From Planctomycetota bacterium (GTDB lineage: Bacteria; Planctomycetota; SZUA-567; H5-PLA8), in NCBI GenBank assembly GCA_043801885.1, contig JAZDLP010000087.1:1-40546 (forward strand): a stretch of DNA of 40,546 nt, written 5' to 3'. Positions within the stretch are counted from its first letter, which is position 1, and the number at the start of each line of letters is the position of its first letter. The notes beneath the pieces are model-generated. The model searched no databases, had not been told where the DNA came from, and saw only the letters and a program-made list of their open reading frames with translations. Made by a program: the position numbers and the translations under genes. Below, piece by piece: positions 10,586 to 40,204 of this stretch.

Positions 10586-10879
10586 CTAGATTGCCATTTC
10601 GGTCTGACCGTGTTCGTGCTGGTAGTCCAACGCGAATTGATTGCATTCTTTCATCGCGCGCTCGCTGGGCAAGAAGGGACTCTCGTAGGCTTCCCAGATT
10701 TCGAGCATCGACTTGATCTCCGTGTCGGTCAGGTCTGCGCTTGATCCGATCTCGCGCTTGACGAATCCCGAGTACGCCGCGTGGCGGAGCGCGTCGCGCG
10801 TCTTGCCTGGTTGCGTCGCGAAACACTTTCCGACAATTGCCGCGAGCCGTTGTGCGGGTGTGGTTGCGTGCTTGTCCAT
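10586..10879 (-). CDS. hypothetical protein (97 aa)
   Basis: ATG at 10879 overlaps the ERF stop (TAATG). The longer track ORF is a Gly/Arg-rich out-of-frame extension. Confidence 0.6.
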   Translation of the reverse strand: MDKHATTPAQRLAAIVGKCFATQPGKTRDALRHAAYSGFVKREIGSSADLTDTEIKSMLEIWEAYESPFLPSERAMKECNQFALDYQHEHGQTEMAI

Positions 10880-11517
10880 TACTTCTTCTCCGCCTTCTTG
10901 TCCGCCCACGCCGACGCCGCCTTGTTCAGTGTAGCGAATACCGTATCGTCGTCCATTCCGAATGTGATTGTTCCGTGCTTGGTCAGGTAGTCCAATGACT
11001 TGATCGCGTTTGCCGCCTCGCCGGAGAGGTACGGGATTTCCTTTGCGGCGCGGGTAACCAAGTCTTTTCGTCCAAACCAAACAACCGGAGCGGATTTCTT
11101 TTTGTCGTCACCCGCGCCTGCGCCATTGTTTCCGTCGGCGTCCTCGTCGGCATATGCCCCGATGATCGCGGCGTATGAATAACGGCGCAGATAGGTGATA
11201 ATTGACCCGGCGGATTGTGCCAGCGACCGTCCCTTCTCGTCGCCAATTGGCATCGCGATGGTGGACTCAAGCCACTGCCCCGACTTGTGCATCAGGATCG
11301 TCGTCAGGGAAATGCTTCCGTTGTCACTCCCCGGCAGTTGTGAGATTGAGAGTCCGTTGTCGCGGAGTGGTTCGCGCGCCGCCTCGATGATTGCGCCCAG
11401 GTCAGCGTACTTGTTTTTGAGAAACGGATTGACGGCGTTCATTTTCACGCCAGCCAATTTGCTTTGTGCCGCGACCAGCGCGGTTGCGATCTGGTCGATG
11501 TTTTCGCTTTTGTTCAT
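10879..11517 (-). CDS. erf: ERF-family single-strand annealing protein (recombinase)
   Basis: NPFLKNKYADLGAIIEAAREPLRDNGLSISQ ... TILMHKSGQW ... QSAGSIITYLRRYSYAAIIG matches the conserved ERF signature (from memory). SD is GAGGGGAG. Confidence 0.8.
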   Translation of the reverse strand: MNKSENIDQIATALVAAQSKLAGVKMNAVNPFLKNKYADLGAIIEAAREPLRDNGLSISQLPGSDNGSISLTTILMHKSGQWLESTIAMPIGDEKGRSLAQSAGSIITYLRRYSYAAIIGAYADEDADGNNGAGAGDDKKKSAPVVWFGRKDLVTRAAKEIPYLSGEAANAIKSLDYLTKHGTITFGMDDDTVFATLNKAASAWADKKAEKK

Positions 11518-12025: not shown

Positions 12026-12574
12026 TTAATCCTTTGAATGCATTAACCCATAAAGCGTAGCCACGCGCGCGGTGATCTCACTGTTTTCCTCGCACGTGCC
12101 AACGTGGCAACGAGACAGGCGATACTTGCCATCCGTCGTGGTTGGGATGCAGGCAATGTCGGAGGCAATATGATGGATAACCTTAACGCGATGGGATGGT
12201 TCATAGTTCTTCAAAACCCACGCGAGTGTTCCCACATTGATACCACTGGCGCATGTTTGATTAGGGTCTGTGTTCGCATCTGCGACTAACAACTCTGCAT
12301 TGTCAGCATAAATAAGACCGCCATTGAAGATGCCCTCATCCCTCTGGTTGGTCAATTTGTAACTAACCATACTTCCTAATTGGTCTTTGAGAATGAGAAG
12401 GTCACAAACCAATTCTGGAATAATCCCGATGGCGTAACTCAGATTGGCGGAACTCAGATCGGCGGAACTCAGATCGGCGGAACTGGCAATTGCTTTCACA
12501 ATAGCATCTCGTTGTGAGTCTGCCTCGGTTTCAAAAATCACAACTCCGCTTCCGTTTTTGATTTGGATGTTCAT
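12026..12574 (-). CDS. pentapeptide-repeat protein with C-terminal domain of unknown function
   Basis: ATG at 12574 is preceded by GGCGGAGG. The N-terminus NIQIKNGSGVVIFETEADS...ASSADLSSADLSSANLSYA is a typical pentapeptide-repeat lead-in. The C-terminal half recalls DUF5758-like phage proteins (memory only). Confidence 0.75.
   Translation of the reverse strand: MNIQIKNGSGVVIFETEADSQRDAIVKAIASSADLSSADLSSANLSYAIGIIPELVCDLLILKDQLGSMVSYKLTNQRDEGIFNGGLIYADNAELLVADANTDPNQTCASGINVGTLAWVLKNYEPSHRVKVIHHIASDIACIPTTTDGKYRLSRCHVGTCEENSEITARVATLYGLMHSKD
12440..12484. repeat. three tandem 15-bp repeats (CAGAT(T/C)GGCGGAACT)
   Basis: Read directly. The repeats are in-frame, and each unit encodes one pentapeptide (SSA(D/N)L) of the minus-strand gene. 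Confidence 0.9.
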
Positions 12575-12888
12575 GTTGCCTCCGCCCATTCCGTGCGCCC
12601 GCGTGCCGCGCGTTCCGCTCGTGCCGCCAACTCGCGCGCCTCAGTGATCGGGTCGCGCACAACATCCGTGCCGAAATCTTCCACCCATACCACGTCATCA
12701 CCGACCTGCAATATCTCGCCGCGATACAACCGCGACATTCCACTCGTGCCCAGTTCGTCCTTGATCGTGGACTTCATCCACCGCTCAAGATTAGGAGCCA
12801 CCACGCGGGGCAGGGTGTTCTCATCGCCGTTGGCGTTCAGCGTGACGTAGACGATCTTCTTGATGTGGACGATCTGTGGTTGATTCAT
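12571..12888 (-). CDS. first gene of the leftward early operon, hypothetical (105 aa)
   Basis: ATG at 12888 is preceded by GAGGACGCG. The track start at 12936 is TTG and would run through the inverted repeats. Confidence 0.6.
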   Translation of the reverse strand: MNQPQIVHIKKIVYVTLNANGDENTLPRVVAPNLERWMKSTIKDELGTSGMSRLYRGEILQVGDDVVWVEDFGTDVVRDPITEARELAARAERAARGRTEWAEAT

Positions 12889-12901
12889 CGCGTCCTCATG
12901 T

Positions 12902-12991
12902 AAACAAAATCTAGAGAGCGACCTTTCCCCATTCAACCTGCCGGATGTTTAGGGTCGAGCCACTCTCTAGATTCTGTTTGCATCCGGCAGG
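12902..12991 (-). promoter_or_regulatory. two interleaved inverted-repeat pairs in the leftward leader (operators or alternative RNA hairpins)
   Basis: A1 12902..12918 pairs with A2 12963..12979 (17 bp; the single mismatch is a G-U pair only in the minus-strand RNA). B1 12937..12947 pairs with B2 12981..12991 (11 bp, perfect). The order along the sequence is A1-B1-A2-B2. Confidence 0.7.
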
Positions 12992-13008
12992 ATTGTTTCA
13001 TCGGGGTC

Positions 13009-13037
13009 ATTGTAACCGAAGTCCCCGCCAATGTCAA
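13009..13037 (-). promoter_or_regulatory. sigma70-type promoter, leftward (early operon)
   Basis: The minus strand reads TTGACA (13037..13032), a 17-nt spacer, then TACAAT (13014..13009). Confidence 0.7.
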
Positions 13038-13122
13038 GCGTTTTGGAGACGAGTTGTACTAGAGTTTCTGTGCGCCGCCGCATACGTGAGTATTAAGATT
13101 TCGTTAAAGCCACAAAAAGGGC

Positions 13123-13150
13123 TTGACTCGGATCGGATTCGTGGTATAAT
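13123..13150 (+). promoter_or_regulatory. sigma70-type promoter with extended -10, rightward
   Basis: TTGACT (13123..13128), a 16-nt spacer, then TGg-TATAAT (13142..13150). Confidence 0.75.
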
Positions 13151-13170
13151 CACCCATAGGGAAATGAATT

Positions 13171-13199
13171 GCGCCGACTTCAGCGGCGTTTCGTATTTA
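13171..13199 (+). terminator. promoter-proximal hairpin plus U-rich tail (attenuator-like)
   Basis: GCGCCG-acttca-GCGGCGT followed by TTTCGTATTT, about 15-45 nt after the predicted start site. The stem is short, so termination is uncertain. Confidence 0.3.
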
Positions 13200-13207
13200 G
13201 CAACCTA

Positions 13208-13244
13208 GCCGGGTGTCTCGCGTCTGAAGCGCGGGATGCCCGGC
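13208..13244 (+). ncRNA. long leader hairpin (15-bp stem, 7-nt loop) in the 5' UTR of the rightward cassette
   Basis: Positions 13208..13222 pair with 13230..13244. Three of the pairs are G-U only in the plus-strand RNA. The SD GGAG of the first gene follows 10 nt later. Confidence 0.55.
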
Positions 13245-13264
13245 GATCTGTTTGGAGACACTCA

Positions 13265-13468
13265 ATGTCAACGTTCCGCAAACTCTCGATTGATGAATAC
13301 TCTCAACTCTACAACGCGTTGAGCGACGCCCTTGATGCAGACAGTGGACAGTCCAACCGCTGCGGGAATCATTTTGTACTTATCGCAGTGCTGGGCAACC
13401 TCGGATTCAGCGCGCGGGGAAGCGAACAAGCCGAATCGCTTTCACAACGGATATTGGATGGACAATAA
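13265..13468 (+). CDS. ORFan 1 of rightward cassette (67 aa)
   Basis: ATG at 13265 is preceded by TTGGAGAC. The longer track ORF would start inside the structured leader. Confidence 0.6.
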   Translation: MSTFRKLSIDEYSQLYNALSDALDADSGQSNRCGNHFVLIAVLGNLGFSARGSEQAESLSQRILDGQ

Positions 13469-13737
13469 TGATACCCTCCGTCGGTGACTATGTACGTGTC
13501 AACGTTTGGAATGGAGTCGTGCGCGCCGTGTTTCGGGTCGAAGGCGCACCAGATAATCCGTTCGTTGAAATTGAGTTTGTCAAGAATATCTTTAAGGGTC
13601 AGCCGAGCGAGACGCATCGCTGGCTTGACCTCGCGCCGCATACCGCCACCGTATCGTGGCAAGCCCTGTTAAATGAAATTGTGACAACCCAAGAGCGAAT
13701 GCAAATCCGCTTTGACGCGCTAGGAGTACCAGAATAA
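13468..13737 (+). CDS. ORFan 2 (89 aa)
   Basis: ORF track. The start overlaps the upstream stop by one base (TAATG). Confidence 0.65.
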   Translation: MIPSVGDYVRVNVWNGVVRAVFRVEGAPDNPFVEIEFVKNIFKGQPSETHRWLDLAPHTATVSWQALLNEIVTTQERMQIRFDALGVPE

Positions 13738-13774
13738 ATTTGATAGCCCGCCCCGCGCGGGCGAAAGGAGTGAC

Positions 13775-14029
13775 ATGGAAATCATTCGAGACAACGAACT
13801 GGGCGGCGTTATGATGATCCCGCTTTTTGTTGATTGGCAGATTCGCAGATGCAACGTGAAGGGTTGCCGCGCCGTGCCGACGACGATTATCGCGGGACAC
13901 GATGAGGCGGGACGCGCCTACGGGCTTTGCGAAGTCCATTTCCAGCAAGGCAACCAACCCGAAGGGGCGAACCTGACCATTGAGTTTGACGCCTTCGATG
14001 CGTTCAAAAGCGAAAGGAGCGGGTGGTGA
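13775..14029 (+). CDS. ORFan 3 (84 aa), CxxxxC...CxxH zinc-binding-like
   Basis: AAAGGAG SD sits 7 nt upstream. Contains RRCNVKGC ... LCEVHF. Confidence 0.65.
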   Translation: MEIIRDNELGGVMMIPLFVDWQIRRCNVKGCRAVPTTIIAGHDEAGRAYGLCEVHFQQGNQPEGANLTIEFDAFDAFKSERSGW

Positions 14030-14229
14030 AAGAGAAAACCTACACGATCACAGTCAGAATGAATTGGATGAGCCGCCTTACCGACGAACTTACCAATTGG
14101 CAAATTCCGCCCTCGCGTTACACCATCAAGGAAAACGTTCTCACCACCACCAGCACGGATGTTGTGGACGTGGCGACGGAAACATTCTTGCGCCAACCTG
14201 AAGTCATCAAGATCGAGGTGACGAAATGA
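14023..14229 (+). CDS. ORFan 4 (68 aa)
   Basis: ORF track; 7-nt overlap with ORFan 3. The alternative GTG/ATG start cannot be resolved. Confidence 0.55.
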   Translation: MVKEKTYTITVRMNWMSRLTDELTNWQIPPSRYTIKENVLTTTSTDVVDVATETFLRQPEVIKIEVTK

Positions 14230-14489
14230 GCAACACACCAACCGAAGCGGAACTGAAACTGGCGCAAGAAATTGCGGACAGATTGGAAGTTGAACATTTC
14301 ATCGTGCTCGACAATGAATCGGATGCCACTAACATCGTCGCCGCTCTTCTCGCCGCGCACCGCGACGAGGGCGAGTTGGCGCGGTTGCTGGCGCTGGCTC
14401 GAAAGATGGAACACACCGAAAGCATAGGCGCGCGAAACAAGTGGTTGTGTGACATTGACGCCGCGCTGGCGCAACACGAGCAGGCATAG
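14226..14489 (+). CDS. ORFan 5 (87 aa, acidic, helical-looking)
   Basis: ORF track; ATGA overlap with ORFan 4. Confidence 0.6.
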   Translation: MSNTPTEAELKLAQEIADRLEVEHFIVLDNESDATNIVAALLAAHRDEGELARLLALARKMEHTESIGARNKWLCDIDAALAQHEQA

Positions 14490-14623
14490 CGAACAGTCCC
14501 CGCGCTGGAAGGGGGAGCGTCCAGCACGAGGATTGTCGCGCCGCCTCGCTTGTAGCCCTGGGTGAACCCATGCTGTTGATCACAAGGCGGACGCGCGCCA
14601 AGTCCGCAAGGACAGGGCGCGCG

Positions 14624-14854
14624 TTACTTGCCCTGCGCCCGATCCATCGCTTGTTTTGTCGCGATACTATTCAACCCTGCACCGCCGACTACAGACACAC
14701 CAACCGTCAACATCGTCTTCACAAGTTCAAACGCGTTCGGGTCAAGGGCTTTGCCAAACAGCGAAGCCCCCACCGTGACCAGTACTGCCAACACGCCGCC
14801 AAGTCCGAATCCCAACAGGACGACCTGCGGGGCTTTGTCAAGAATAGTACTCAT
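14624..14854 (-). CDS. holin-like small membrane protein (76 aa, 2 TM, charged C-terminus)
   Basis: ATG at 14854 is preceded by GGAGGA. TM segments VVLLGFGLGGVLAVLVTVGASLF and TMLTVGVSVVGGAGL, with tail KQAMDRAQGK. It is the last gene of the late operon. Confidence 0.5.
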   Translation of the reverse strand: MSTILDKAPQVVLLGFGLGGVLAVLVTVGASLFGKALDPNAFELVKTMLTVGVSVVGGAGLNSIATKQAMDRAQGK

Positions 14855-15363: not shown

Positions 15364-15588
15364 TTAAACTTCAATCCAGTAAACGATATGCCGGCATTTC
15401 TGATTCGCCACATTCAGCCCCGGTACTGACGCCGAACGCAATTGTCCCAGGTCGGCGTAGTGGTGAATAATTTGCATCGCCCGATCCTCTGAAATTCCAA
15501 GCCGCCGCGCGATCTGAACCGTTCTCTCTGCACCTTCTTTGTCGCCGGCTATCGGCGGGATTTCGACTTGCTTTTTCCTCTTTGCCAT
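15364..15588 (-). CDS. small putative DNA-binding (HTH-like) protein
   Basis: ATG at 15588 is preceded by GGGGAG. Basic N-terminus, then TVQIARRLGISEDRAMQII, which looks like a helix-turn-helix. Confidence 0.45.
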   Translation of the reverse strand: MAKRKKQVEIPPIAGDKEGAERTVQIARRLGISEDRAMQIIHHYADLGQLRSASVPGLNVANQKCRHIVYWIEV

Positions 15589-26209: not shown

Positions 26210-26518
26210 ATGCCAGACGAATCTATCGAGCAAACCATTCTCCGCTATATCGAATCGGGCTATCGCGTGATCTGGAAAGACATGTACTCTGCCCAACTCG
26301 TCAAGTCCAAGCGGTTGCGGGGAGGCGTGGTAGCCACCCTTGCCCTGTTCATCTCTTTTTTCGCCGTGCTTGTGCTGCCGCTACAGACCACTCTGACTAT
26401 CGCCGCGCTTTCCCTATTCGTATTGCTTCTACTTGCTTTTGACTACCTCAATGCGCGAGATGCAACAGTCTATCTTTACCTCAGCGAAGACGGCACAGTG
26501 CAATCCATCACCCGCTAA
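26210..26518 (+). CDS. moron-like membrane protein (102 aa, 2 TM), antisense to the tail operon
   Basis: ATG follows AGGAGGTGTGTC. TM segments VVATLALFISFFAVLVLPL and LTIAALSLFVLLLLAF. It fills the gap between the GT stop (26515) and the tape-measure start (26163). Confidence 0.7.
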   Translation: MPDESIEQTILRYIESGYRVIWKDMYSAQLVKSKRLRGGVVATLALFISFFAVLVLPLQTTLTIAALSLFVLLLLAFDYLNARDATVYLYLSEDGTVQSITR

Positions 26519-34248: not shown

Positions 34249-34288
34249 AAAATAAAAAACGCAGGTTAACTTTTTCGAGTCAACCTGC
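34249..34288 (-). terminator. intrinsic terminator inside the late operon
   Basis: The minus-strand RNA reads GCAGGUUGAC-UCGAAAAA-GUUAACCUGC. That is a 10-bp stem with one G-U that would be C-A on the other strand. It is followed by GUUUUUUAUUUU. Confidence 0.7.
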
Positions 34289-34356
34289 GAAGTGCTTTTG
34301 AGTGTCGCAGTCGCCGCGCGGTTTTGCCGCGCCGCGTATGTGGTTGTAGAATCGGT

Positions 34357-34551
34357 CTATCCCAAGATTTCCCTCTTCGCTTCGATCATAGCGATAATCG
34401 CCAATCCCGCCGCCGTCACTTCCAGCCACACGATTATCGGCTTGTCACGGAGCGACCGCAAACGCAGAATCAAATTCCGTTCCGCCGCGCTCACGTCTAA
34501 AGTGATTCTACCACGTTCCAGAGACGGTGTCAATTGAGTCGCATTAATCAT
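34357..34551 (-). CDS. hypothetical protein (64 aa)
   Basis: ORF track; 8-nt overlap with the upstream gene. Confidence 0.45.
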   Translation of the reverse strand: MINATQLTPSLERGRITLDVSAAERNLILRLRSLRDKPIIVWLEVTAAGLAIIAMIEAKREILG

Positions 34552-38457: not shown

Positions 38458-39057
38458 CTATGCGTCAACAGGTACCAAGTTTCTCCAATCGCACAAACTA
38501 GCAACCACTGATTTATCAATAATCACAAATGGATCACACGAACCATTTGCACTACGGCGATTCAAATCTGTCACTTCGTTTCTAACCGCAAATTCTTCGA
38601 CAAGTGACGCGACAAACTCATTCTTGCGAACAGGTGGAATAAAAATCGTTCTGATTTTCGGCAACCGACTAACCCAAAAACCAAACTCTTGACTGTTGAC
38701 GCGGCAGACATATAGGCAATCTATGAATCTGCGTTTTTGTAAATGAATCAGTAAGGGCAAAACCTCGAGCGACAAATCGGAATACTGTTTGCTTGAATGG
38801 GTCTTGATCTCGAACTCGAATATCCGATTGCGCCCAATCGCTAAACGGTCTGCGCGCCCACGTACATACAATGCCGAAATACTATGTGACTTAATCAATA
38901 AATCTTGGATTGTCTGCGGCAATGTTTCGTGATATGTTTGTGCGTGAATACTATAACCACACGCCTGAATGTAGTTGACCGCAATGTCTTCTAGTTTTGC
39001 GTGTGGCTCAAAAGACGGGTCAATTCTTGGCGATGCGACTTTTTGCGATGTTAGCAT
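38458..39057 (-). CDS. PD-(D/E)XK-type nuclease candidate (restriction-endonuclease-like)
   Basis: GRADRLAIGRNRIFEFEIKTH gives a D-x12-ExK motif. GC is about 42% in two hand-counted 60-nt lines, against about 55% in flanking genes. Its start overlaps the MTase 3' end by 38 nt. Confidence 0.5.
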   Translation of the reverse strand: MLTSQKVASPRIDPSFEPHAKLEDIAVNYIQACGYSIHAQTYHETLPQTIQDLLIKSHSISALYVRGRADRLAIGRNRIFEFEIKTHSSKQYSDLSLEVLPLLIHLQKRRFIDCLYVCRVNSQEFGFWVSRLPKIRTIFIPPVRKNEFVASLVEEFAVRNEVTDLNRRSANGSCDPFVIIDKSVVASLCDWRNLVPVDA

Positions 39058-40111
39058 TGTCCTCGTCTATTTCGATACCGATTGAATTGCGATTCAGTTG
39101 ATGCGCGGCAATCAGTGTTGTGCCTGACCCTGCAAACGGGTCTAAGATTGTATCGCCCTCGTTAGTCAAATGTTCGATGTAATAGCGCGCCTCTGCGTCG
39201 CTTTGTTGCCAGTCGTGATCGTCTTTAGTTGGCAAACTCGATTCGATTAGGTCAGAGACAAAATCGAGGTTGCCGCCGCGCGTGTCTTTTACAAACCACA
39301 GCATCGGCTTCCACGCCACGAAAACATTGACACCAGTCAGCCGCGCCGAGTTTCCGTTGTGCTTGCAGCACAGTGTCCACCAGTACCGCAAATGCGGAGT
39401 CATTAGATTTAGTATTTCTGGAATGGCATAATGCCCGGCATAACAAATCAGACTGCCGCCCGGCTTCAAAACCCGTGCCGCCTCACGCGCCAAGTCCTCA
39501 TACAACGGAATGGATTCTCTGTCATAGGGCGGATCGGTAAAAACGAGGTCAACGGAATTGTCTGGAATGTCTTTGACGCGCTCCCGAAAATCGCCCACTC
39601 GCAAATCAACACCACAGGGCAACGCGACTGACTTGCCCGCCTTTGCGCGCTTCGTCCGCTCCGCTTGTTTTCGCTCGCTCTTCGCAACCCCCAAGACAGT
39701 AGTTGTAGTCAGCTCTTTTTCTTTCCCGAGCTCCTCCGCAATGGTCGTTTCCAGCTTTGCTTCGGGTAGTTCTCCCATTTGTTGAGTCCGCGATGATTCG
39801 TTTCGGGTTATTCCAAGTTCGTCCAACGTAACCGTAACTGTCCCATCTTGGGACAGTTTGGGTGTTTTCCCCTCTCGCAACTCGCCTGATTTCTTCATCT
39901 GTGCGAGTATCTGACCCTCTTTCCATTGCGCCTTGATCTTTATTTCGGCGGCATTATTCTGCGCTTCTAATCCAAGTCCCGCCTTGCGCGCGTACTGCCT
40001 AGCCGCCTCGGCTAGGTTTGCAACCTGTCGAGCGTCTGACACGGTTTTGATCTCTGCTAGCATCCGCGTTGCTTCGGTCAGTTTTGTTAAAGTGCCATTA
40101 CCGTTACTCAT
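39020..40111 (-). CDS. DNA methyltransferase (beta-class amino-MTase) with ~170-aa N-terminal DNA-binding-like extension
   Basis: VFTDPPYDR (motif IV) precedes ILDPFAGSGTTLIAA (motif I). The N-terminal region is AEIKIKAQWKEGQIL...LDELGITRNESSRTQQMGELPE. SD is GAGGTTGAA. Confidence 0.85.
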   Translation of the reverse strand: MSNGNGTLTKLTEATRMLAEIKTVSDARQVANLAEAARQYARKAGLGLEAQNNAAEIKIKAQWKEGQILAQMKKSGELREGKTPKLSQDGTVTVTLDELGITRNESSRTQQMGELPEAKLETTIAEELGKEKELTTTTVLGVAKSERKQAERTKRAKAGKSVALPCGVDLRVGDFRERVKDIPDNSVDLVFTDPPYDRESIPLYEDLAREAARVLKPGGSLICYAGHYAIPEILNLMTPHLRYWWTLCCKHNGNSARLTGVNVFVAWKPMLWFVKDTRGGNLDFVSDLIESSLPTKDDHDWQQSDAEARYYIEHLTNEGDTILDPFAGSGTTLIAAHQLNRNSIGIEIDEDNANIAKSRIAKN

Positions 40112-40204
40112 TTCAACCTCTGCATTGAATTCTCTGACCTTATTCAGACTGGCAGGCGATTCAGAGTTATCGCTTTTCGGGTGTACTGCCCTAGCCAGTC
40201 TTAG

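Follow-up and report, generated by a model that had tools for sequence, protein, structure and literature searches.

The only large intergenic gap in contig JAZDLP010000087.1, a 40,546-nucleotide (nt) stretch of DNA assigned to a Planctomycetota bacterium, taken here as that of an uncultured phage and called, at its full length, the window, contains two strong promoters that face away from each other, and the leader transcribed from the leftward one carries two inverted repeats, A and B, whose arms are interleaved in the order A1-B1-A2-B2. We tentatively favour, at a confidence somewhat short of even, the reading that these repeats belong to a cis-acting, two-state 5' leader RNA of the leftward early operon and are not operators; to a similar degree, not quite an even bet, we favour the view that the two-state leader acts after initiation, by attenuation and/or RNase III-type processing. 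This reading gains support because the only DNA that the window shares at that position with its two metagenomic relatives, the short contigs L128 and L138, is the transcribed leader, while promoters and neighbours differ. The original prediction, made from the letters of the window, had described a genetic-switch region with no recognisable repressor, whose repeats might be read either as RNA or as DNA elements. The features discussed below are collected in the table.

The gap measures 376 base pairs (bp), from the ATG at 12888..12886 to that at 13265, and is the divergent early-promoter region of the window, being the only place in it where strong promoters diverge. Both promoters are near-consensus sigma-70 sites and stand where the original prediction had placed them, each with 11 of 12 consensus positions and with 85 bp (13038..13122) separating their -35 hexamers; the two strands of the 40.5 kb hold just three sites of this quality, the third of which, at 34533..34505 (-), has the sequence CGTGGTA[T/G]AATCAC in common with the rightward promoter. 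Leftward transcription is predicted, from spacing, to start at G13002 or A13001; the predicted rightward start is near 13156-13158. The repeats occupy positions +12 to +105 of the leftward transcript and overlap neither the -35 nor the -10 element of either promoter.

The repeats themselves are as originally described. Repeat A pairs 12902-12918 with 12963-12979 at 16 of 17 positions, extends to 21 nt at 90% (12898-12918 / 12963-12983), is the longest local inverted repeat of the window, carries the palindrome TCTAGA in both arms, and stops, with arm A1, 13 nt short of the first leftward gene's ATG, beside the Shine-Dalgarno (SD) sequence of that gene; no second copy of it occurs in the window even at three or fewer mismatches, 0.09 being expected by chance. 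Repeat B pairs 12937-12947 with 12981-12991 at all 11 positions and has no further copy in the window beyond chance. A perfect inverted repeat of at least 11 nt was found in 2 of 3000 dinucleotide-preserving shuffles of the 123-nt leader, and two independent repeats of such size are not chance. The original prediction had taken the leftward RNA to be the strand that matters, on the ground that the odd position of the 17-bp repeat is a G.U pair there; that observation stands, and the argument is weaker than first stated because at 12901/12980, the second mismatch of the 21-nt repeat, the leftward RNA has C.A and it is the opposite strand that has the wobble, U.G.

The leftward leader RNA (13002..12880) folds at -52.6 kcal/mol (z = -7.2), a value that none of 200 shuffles attains; the antisense strand folds more weakly (-45.3 kcal/mol, z = -5.5), and the L138 version reaches -51.2 kcal/mol (z = -5.8). 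In the minimum-energy fold, helix A is a duplex of about 25 bp, made up of 3 bp, a 1x1 mismatch and 22 contiguous bp that include four G.U pairs; a 3x3 internal loop separates this duplex from a weak stem at the apex. Helix B, with 8 G-C pairs among its 11, can form once 66 nt have been transcribed and closes a 33-nt loop that holds the entire 5' strand of helix A, so that every A pair crosses every B pair, and the mutually exclusive hairpins of the original prediction are borne out. Its other suggestion, a pseudoknot-like topology, appears sterically implausible at full length because a single nucleotide, 12980, links the B 5' strand to the A 5' strand and would need to bridge 17-25 bp of duplex. 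When growing transcripts are folded, the lowest energy belongs to helix B at lengths of 66-80 nt (-21.6 to -24 kcal/mol) and to helix A from about 90 nt, the 3' strand of A being made at about 90-102 nt. With the full leader, forcing B gives -32.8 kcal/mol against -52.6 kcal/mol for A, and a nested model puts the barrier from B to A at 26-28 kcal/mol, high enough that it should make a difference which helix is transcribed first; helix B is thus a mutually exclusive, earlier-forming alternative of the kind by which attenuators work. The inner part of hairpin A resembles an intrinsic terminator because the outer 9 bp of the helix have an A-rich 5' side and UUUUGUUU as their 3' side: this inner hairpin (12910..12971, 62 nt, -32.6 kcal/mol, tail UUUUGUUU) scores +8.6 with a terminator formula that gives +34.9 to the canonical terminator at 34289..34260.

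Table. Features of the divergent early-promoter region, in window coordinates
Feature	Position	Strand	Remarks
Leftward early promoter	13009..13037	-	TTGACA (13037..13032), 17-nt spacer, TACAAT (13014..13009); 11/12 consensus
Conserved leader block	12902..13001	-	99/100 identical in L128 and L138
Possible 22-codon upstream open reading frame (ORF)	12933..13001	-	MKQSCRMQTESREWLDPKHPAG; read from sequence, speculative
Helix B, 5' strand (B2')	12981..12991	-	RNA CCUGCCGGAUG
Helix A, 5' strand (A2')	12958..12983	-	outer part A-rich, AAACAGAAU; wholly within the loop closed by helix B
Helix B, 3' strand (B1')	12937..12947	-	RNA CAUCCGGCAGG; in the apical region of hairpin A
Possible second short ORF, 15 codons	12885..12932	-	begins directly after the stop of the first; speculative
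Helix A, 3' strand (A1')	12898..12923	-	outer part is the U-tract UUUUGUUU (12909..12902), ending 4 nt before the SD
SD and start of first leftward gene	12886..12897	-	SD GAGGA (12897..12893), ATG (12888..12886); L138 has GGGGGAcacaATG there
First leftward early gene, 105 amino acids (aa)	12571..12888	-	model: alpha/beta domain, then conserved C-terminal Arg-rich helix (...RELAARAERAARGRTEW)
Rightward early promoter	13123..13150	+	TTGACT, 16-nt spacer, extended -10 TGgTATAAT; 11/12 consensus
Rightward leader	13157..13264	+	two terminator-like hairpins (13171-13189, 13208-13244), then SD GGAGA and ATG 13265
Rightward operon	13265..14489	+	five small ORFans (67, 69-89, 84, 68 and 87 aa)

The comparative evidence comes from a metagenome scan with the two B arms, which returned 20 loci, 18 of them unrelated hairpins and two true relatives. 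These, L128 and L138, come from Hainich groundwater assemblies and, being 98% identical to each other over 750 nt before they diverge, bring the number of independent lineages to only two. The leader block is the sole similarity to the window that blastn detects in them; it begins 1 nt after the predicted start in the window and about 9 nt after it in L138, where the leftward promoter reads TTTACT-17-TATAAT. Past the block, weaker similarity reaches the SD and the ATG; no alignment is possible for the promoter DNA, the first gene or the rightward region. One other segment can be aligned, window positions ~12585-12655, the C-terminal coding part of the 105-aa gene, whose counterpart is the second gene in L138; its identity is about 89%, with 8 differences in 71 positions by our own count, and the leader, with 1 in 100, is therefore markedly better conserved. 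The single substitution in the block, C to T at 12919, turns a U.G pair of helix A into U-A.

Wider searches added nothing to this set. The block occurs three times in all the viral, metagenome and genome collections scanned, no further member of the leader was found in IMG/VR or in GTDB genomes, and a covariance model of it found none in about 0.95 Mb of fetched loci. A homologue of the first gene of L138 lies mid-operon and has no leader. In viral contigs, the A-arm pattern gave ten matches, all attributable to chance, the B pattern gave none, and two loop patterns gave none and two, the two again being chance. The window as a whole has no relatives among GenBank phages or in IMG/VR, by DNA searches and viral-contig scans.

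The leftward promoter would initiate at about 13002, one nt ahead of the conserved block. If the leader works as a two-state RNA, helix B, the first to form, would be a kinetically favoured 'open' state in which RNA polymerase reads through into the operon. Helix A would be the 'closed' state, a weak intrinsic terminator and, at some 25 bp of duplex, also a substrate for RNase III-type cleavage; termination or cleavage in this state would lower or reshape the expression of the early genes downstream. A factor seated on the 5' strand of helix B would shift the leader to state A; a protein, a second RNA and a ribosome translating a short ORF at the 5' end are candidates. That ORF would be the one of 22 codons, whose AUG coincides with the predicted start site at the 5' edge of the block and whose stop lies just past the 3' strand of helix B; this ORF has neither an SD nor a run of regulatory codons, and it would be leaderless in the window and preceded by a leader of about 9 nt in L138. 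The UGA of the second short ORF overlaps the AUG of the first gene (AUGA), an arrangement that is not conserved in detail, the AUG of this ORF being in frame with the first gene in L138.

The proposed scheme is close to that of known attenuators (trp, pyrBI and the riboswitch platforms) in that the leader separates the promoter from the first gene, a long hairpin with a U-tract after it comes directly ahead of the SD, a helix made earlier is incompatible with that hairpin and a short ORF begins at the 5' end. It departs from them in that helix B shares no nucleotides with the terminator and excludes it by enclosing its 5' strand, and in that the terminator hairpin, at 62 nt and with a structured apex, is of unusual length and scores weakly. 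Nor does the leader contain an identifiable sensor, whether a regulatory-codon peptide, a ligand pocket, a tRNA signal or a protein site.

Several results weigh against a two-state leader RNA and have to be set beside the folding evidence. A consensus terminator scan does not flag helix A, whose loop exceeds 8 nt, and Rfam 15 has no match in the region at gathering thresholds. By partition function, the accessibility of the SD does not differ between the two states, which gives no support to a simple anti-SD mechanism; a model in which the freed B 5' strand pairs with the SD in state A was dropped on the same account, since the pairing probabilities of the SD do not tell the states apart. Between the window and L128/L138 there is no compensatory change in A or B and hence no support from covariation for either helix. 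The 12919 substitution keeps pairing on the other strand as well, and the mismatches of the 21-nt repeat give one G.U to each strand; with mismatches and substitution strand-neutral, the preference for the leftward RNA comes from the 5-bp, wobble-rich extension and from the energies. The window and its relatives amount to only two independent lineages, and their 99% identity could stem from recent exchange and not from selection. Finally, where homologues of the 105-aa gene occur in other contigs, the DNA upstream of them contains neither a relative of the leader nor any notable structure.

The likeliest alternative is a plain processing or stability hairpin, in which helix A would be cut by the host RNase III, thereby setting messenger RNA stability or translation of the first gene, and helix B would be incidental or a folding intermediate; we consider it unlikely, though far from negligible. 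RNase III needs about 20 bp of duplex, or two helical turns, and long leader duplexes are cut by it in the lambda N leader and at the T7 early sites. Helix A, with 22 contiguous bp and 3 more across the 1x1 mismatch, is a near-continuous duplex above that length, it is the thermodynamic ground state by about 20 kcal/mol, and its location between an early promoter and the first gene matches that of the lambda N-leader site. The likeness to lambda goes further, as the leftward early operon there also contains recombination genes, represented here by an Erf-family gene. What such a hairpin leaves unexplained is a perfect 11-bp helix B placed so as to exclude A, for which the lambda and T7 sites have no counterpart, as well as the A-tract and U-tract flanks; the SD, moreover, stays paired in the modelled 3' fragment, so that its release by cleavage is unsupported. 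No nut-like boxA or boxB was recognised.

We regard it as distinctly unlikely that A and/or B are DNA operators, bound by a phage or host protein that blocks elongation or loops the DNA. Each A arm does contain the palindrome TCTAGA, conservation without covariation fits a DNA site equally well, and the layout around the block in L138, flanked by a divergent small ORFan and a serine integrase, is of the lysogeny type. A reader might also lie outside the contig, which may be incomplete because its ends show no terminal overlap, or might be the 74-aa ORF at 15364..15588, which has sub-threshold helix-turn-helix (HTH) matches. The position of the repeats, downstream of the leftward start and clear of the -35 and -10 elements of both promoters, speaks otherwise, as do the arm separations of 33 and 44 bp, which are not dimer-operator geometry. 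The promoter DNA, the usual seat of operators, is not conserved and the transcribed leader is. A linked DNA-binding reader is disfavoured because the proteins on the rightward side are unrelated between the window and L138 and because A and B have no other copy in the 40.5 kb; in particular, an operator read by the product of a neighbouring gene is unlikely because the first rightward gene of the relative, encoding an 86-aa ORFan, is unrelated to the 67-aa gene of the window.

The same evidence bears on the comparison with a CI/Cro switch, which the region resembles in its back-to-back strong promoters and, in L138, in having an integrase operon on one side and early genes on the other. The differences are that no repressor or Cro homologue flanks the region, no repeated operators overlie the promoters, no integrase or other lysogeny gene was found among the scanned genes of the window (the larger unscanned ORFs lying in the structural block), and the conserved element is a transcribed leader and not a promoter region. 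The original statement that no CI-, Cro- or Xre-type HTH protein flanks the region holds as far as it can be tested: the flanking ORFs have no Pfam or PHROG match even at E<=5 and no detectable DNA-binding domain, fold searches agree, and no scanned ORF of the window has a DNA-binding domain above family threshold. The model of the 67-aa protein, three helices at low confidence (predicted local distance difference test, pLDDT, 60), has no PDB fold match; a ribbon-helix-helix reading of it and of the 86-aa protein of L138 was made by eye and has no Pfam, PHROG or PDB support. In L138, the 86-aa ORFan is followed by a serine recombinase of integrase type (PF00239 at 1.6e-12, phrog_95 at 8e-20), and this relative looks temperate on that basis. 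The term 'switch region' is therefore only partly supported: the divergent early promoters and the integrase of one relative speak for it, and the scanned genes of the window itself include no integrase and no recognisable repressor. The block was also considered as the attP site of the L138 serine integrase and rejected, its arm spacing being wrong and the window having no integrase.

It is improbable that the block, self-complementary by accident, is without regulatory function, either a mosaic junction left by recent exchange or what remains of a small mobile element. In favour of this, it is a 99%-identity island in otherwise unalignable DNA, has weakly inverted ends (AAACAAAATC / GATTGTTTCAT), shows no covariation and is very rare, with three occurrences across the collections scanned. 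Against it, both independent occurrences have the same orientation and the same place, downstream of an early promoter and ahead of the first gene, and begin 1-9 nt from the predicted start site. A target-site duplication is absent, neither 596 Gb of genomes nor the metagenomes show the block in many copies, and a neutral junction would not be expected to contain two nested helices that are both significant. The terminal repeats, target duplication and many copies that together mark a miniature inverted-repeat element are not what the block displays.

A further extension of the two-state leader, in which the leader itself reads the switch, would provide RNA-only feedback or immunity; we hold it to be a long shot, and action of the leader in trans is pure conjecture. 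In such a scheme, transcripts ended in state A or cut from it would expose the 5' strand of helix B, which is perfectly complementary to the B 3' strand and could pair with nascent leaders in trans; this pairing would block nascent helix B, direct the leader into the terminator or processing state A, and let the early operon shut itself off without a protein repressor. The logic is that of the P4 CI RNA, whose immunity mechanism involves seqA and seqC (PMC4825925), although the leader would be an unrelated RNA of different architecture. As in the P4 CI RNA and the P1/P7 c4 RNA, complementary segments (here B2'/B1') lie crossed in an early leader, no protein repressor is found and premature termination is the proposed outcome; in contrast to them, the arms are 11 and about 25 bp long and not 6-9 nt, no tRNA-like processed RNA is evident, and the Rfam C4 family has no match to the leader at E<=10. 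A second parallel is the Gifsy-1 IsrK leader. This prophage element can adopt alternative structures and includes a terminator as well as a short upstream ORF through whose translation the gene downstream is gated, and its short, terminated transcript acts on the long one in trans (PMC4825925); it has no sequence or family relationship to the leader described here.

By the tests applied, then, the leader belongs to none of the systems with which it was compared. The best Rfam match at E<=10 is RT-12, at 20.1 bits where 44.2 are needed (E 0.39), accompanied by a microRNA hairpin; the RT-12 alignment (12900..13036, -) is full-length yet sub-threshold, it probably reflects only the long hairpin, and no reverse transcriptase is found among the scanned ORFs. 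A CRISPR-repeat mimic was rejected as the loop is far too long, and a shared GCGCGGGATGCC motif because it occurs at chance level.

To our knowledge, post-initiation control of phage early operons is known from few models, namely lambda N/nut, HK022 put, P4 CI RNA and P1 c4. If the two-state reading is true, two competing helices that move as a unit between otherwise unrelated groundwater-phage early regions would be a new and compact example, the leader may be a portable regulatory part without a dedicated protein, and a switch-like region without a repressor would become explicable at the level of RNA. With two lineages and no covariation the case is thin, and we present the leader as a well-defined candidate and not as an established element.

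Nearly all genes of the window are on the minus strand, a layout that does not favour a switch, and the plus strand has only the five small ORFans of the rightward operon and one ORF at 26210. The leftward operon extends from 12888 down to about 200 and encodes an Erf-family annealing protein (10879..11517), an SNF2-type helicase, an RNase H-like protein and a methyltransferase-like ORF, the last recognised by eye from a DPPYN motif and without a family scan. From about 38.4 kb down to 14.6 kb, the minus strand carries the large terminase, large ORFs and some accessory genes, and the large unscanned ORFs of this block are taken to be structural from their size and position. Other loci with related Erf or SNF2 helicase genes were considered as relatives and rejected, having a single gene in common and no synteny.

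The 105-aa product of the first leftward gene has no Pfam or PHROG family at E<=5, and its model (pLDDT 76) has no PDB fold match. Its homologues, at 40-64% identity, were found by exhaustive search only, a word-indexed search having returned nothing except the protein itself and missed homologues at 54-64% identity; neither this protein nor the 67-aa one has a match in viral-contig scans or exact-protein look-ups. The homologues share the C-terminal Arg-rich helix ending in RTEWxEAV. The family is mosaic, keeping the MNQPQ N-terminus and this helix (...ARExAARAxRKARxRTEWxEAV) with the middle replaced in L128 and L138; members were located at L128 454-774 and L138 299-631 and also include P0021-P0024. 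The second leftward gene (12026..12574, -) encodes a pentapeptide-repeat protein whose homologues differ greatly in repeat number and, in L125 and L126, occur in unrelated phage contexts, L126 opening with about 350 nt of tandem 15-nt repeats. Both leader-bearing relatives have a tRNA-Met gene a little further downstream in their early leftward operon (L128 1433-1506, +; L138 2-72, -), for which the corresponding region of the window has no counterpart.

On the rightward side, the leader folds with z = -3.3 and is not conserved in the relatives. It contains a 14-codon ORF (13166..13208), a hairpin of 6 bp with UUUCGUAUUUA after it, and, immediately ahead of the SD, a second hairpin of 16 bp, with a possible alternative pairing of 13178-13188 with 13219-13229. 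Where the rightward operon meets the minus-strand block, at 14591..14624, a hairpin with 15-nt arms and a 4-nt loop separates the convergent operons, its right arm extending as far as the leftward gene's stop codon; this is probably a bidirectional terminator.

Three further features lie elsewhere in the window. The unit at 34260..34533 (-), downstream of the terminase, combines the third near-consensus promoter (TTGACA-17-TGgTAGAAT, with CGTGGTAnAATCAC common to the rightward promoter) and, about 210 nt downstream, the strongest canonical terminator of the window (12-bp stem, T-run). This promoter falls within a called 64-aa ORF (34357..34551), and the unit, which has a fold z-score of -2.6 and no Pfam, PHROG or Rfam match, may instead encode a small RNA or a shorter ORF, the GTG of which, at 34494, would be 4 nt away from the predicted transcription start. 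A 199-aa ORF at 38458..39057 (-), without a family match, has a third-position GC of 0.42 against about 0.6 elsewhere and may be a recent acquisition or not a gene at all. An Rfam int-alpA RNA (RF02996) match at 40132..40201 (-), 43.9 bits and above the gathering score, is located directly upstream of the gene at 39020..40111, which encodes a DNA methyltransferase (N6/N4) and not an integrase or AlpA.

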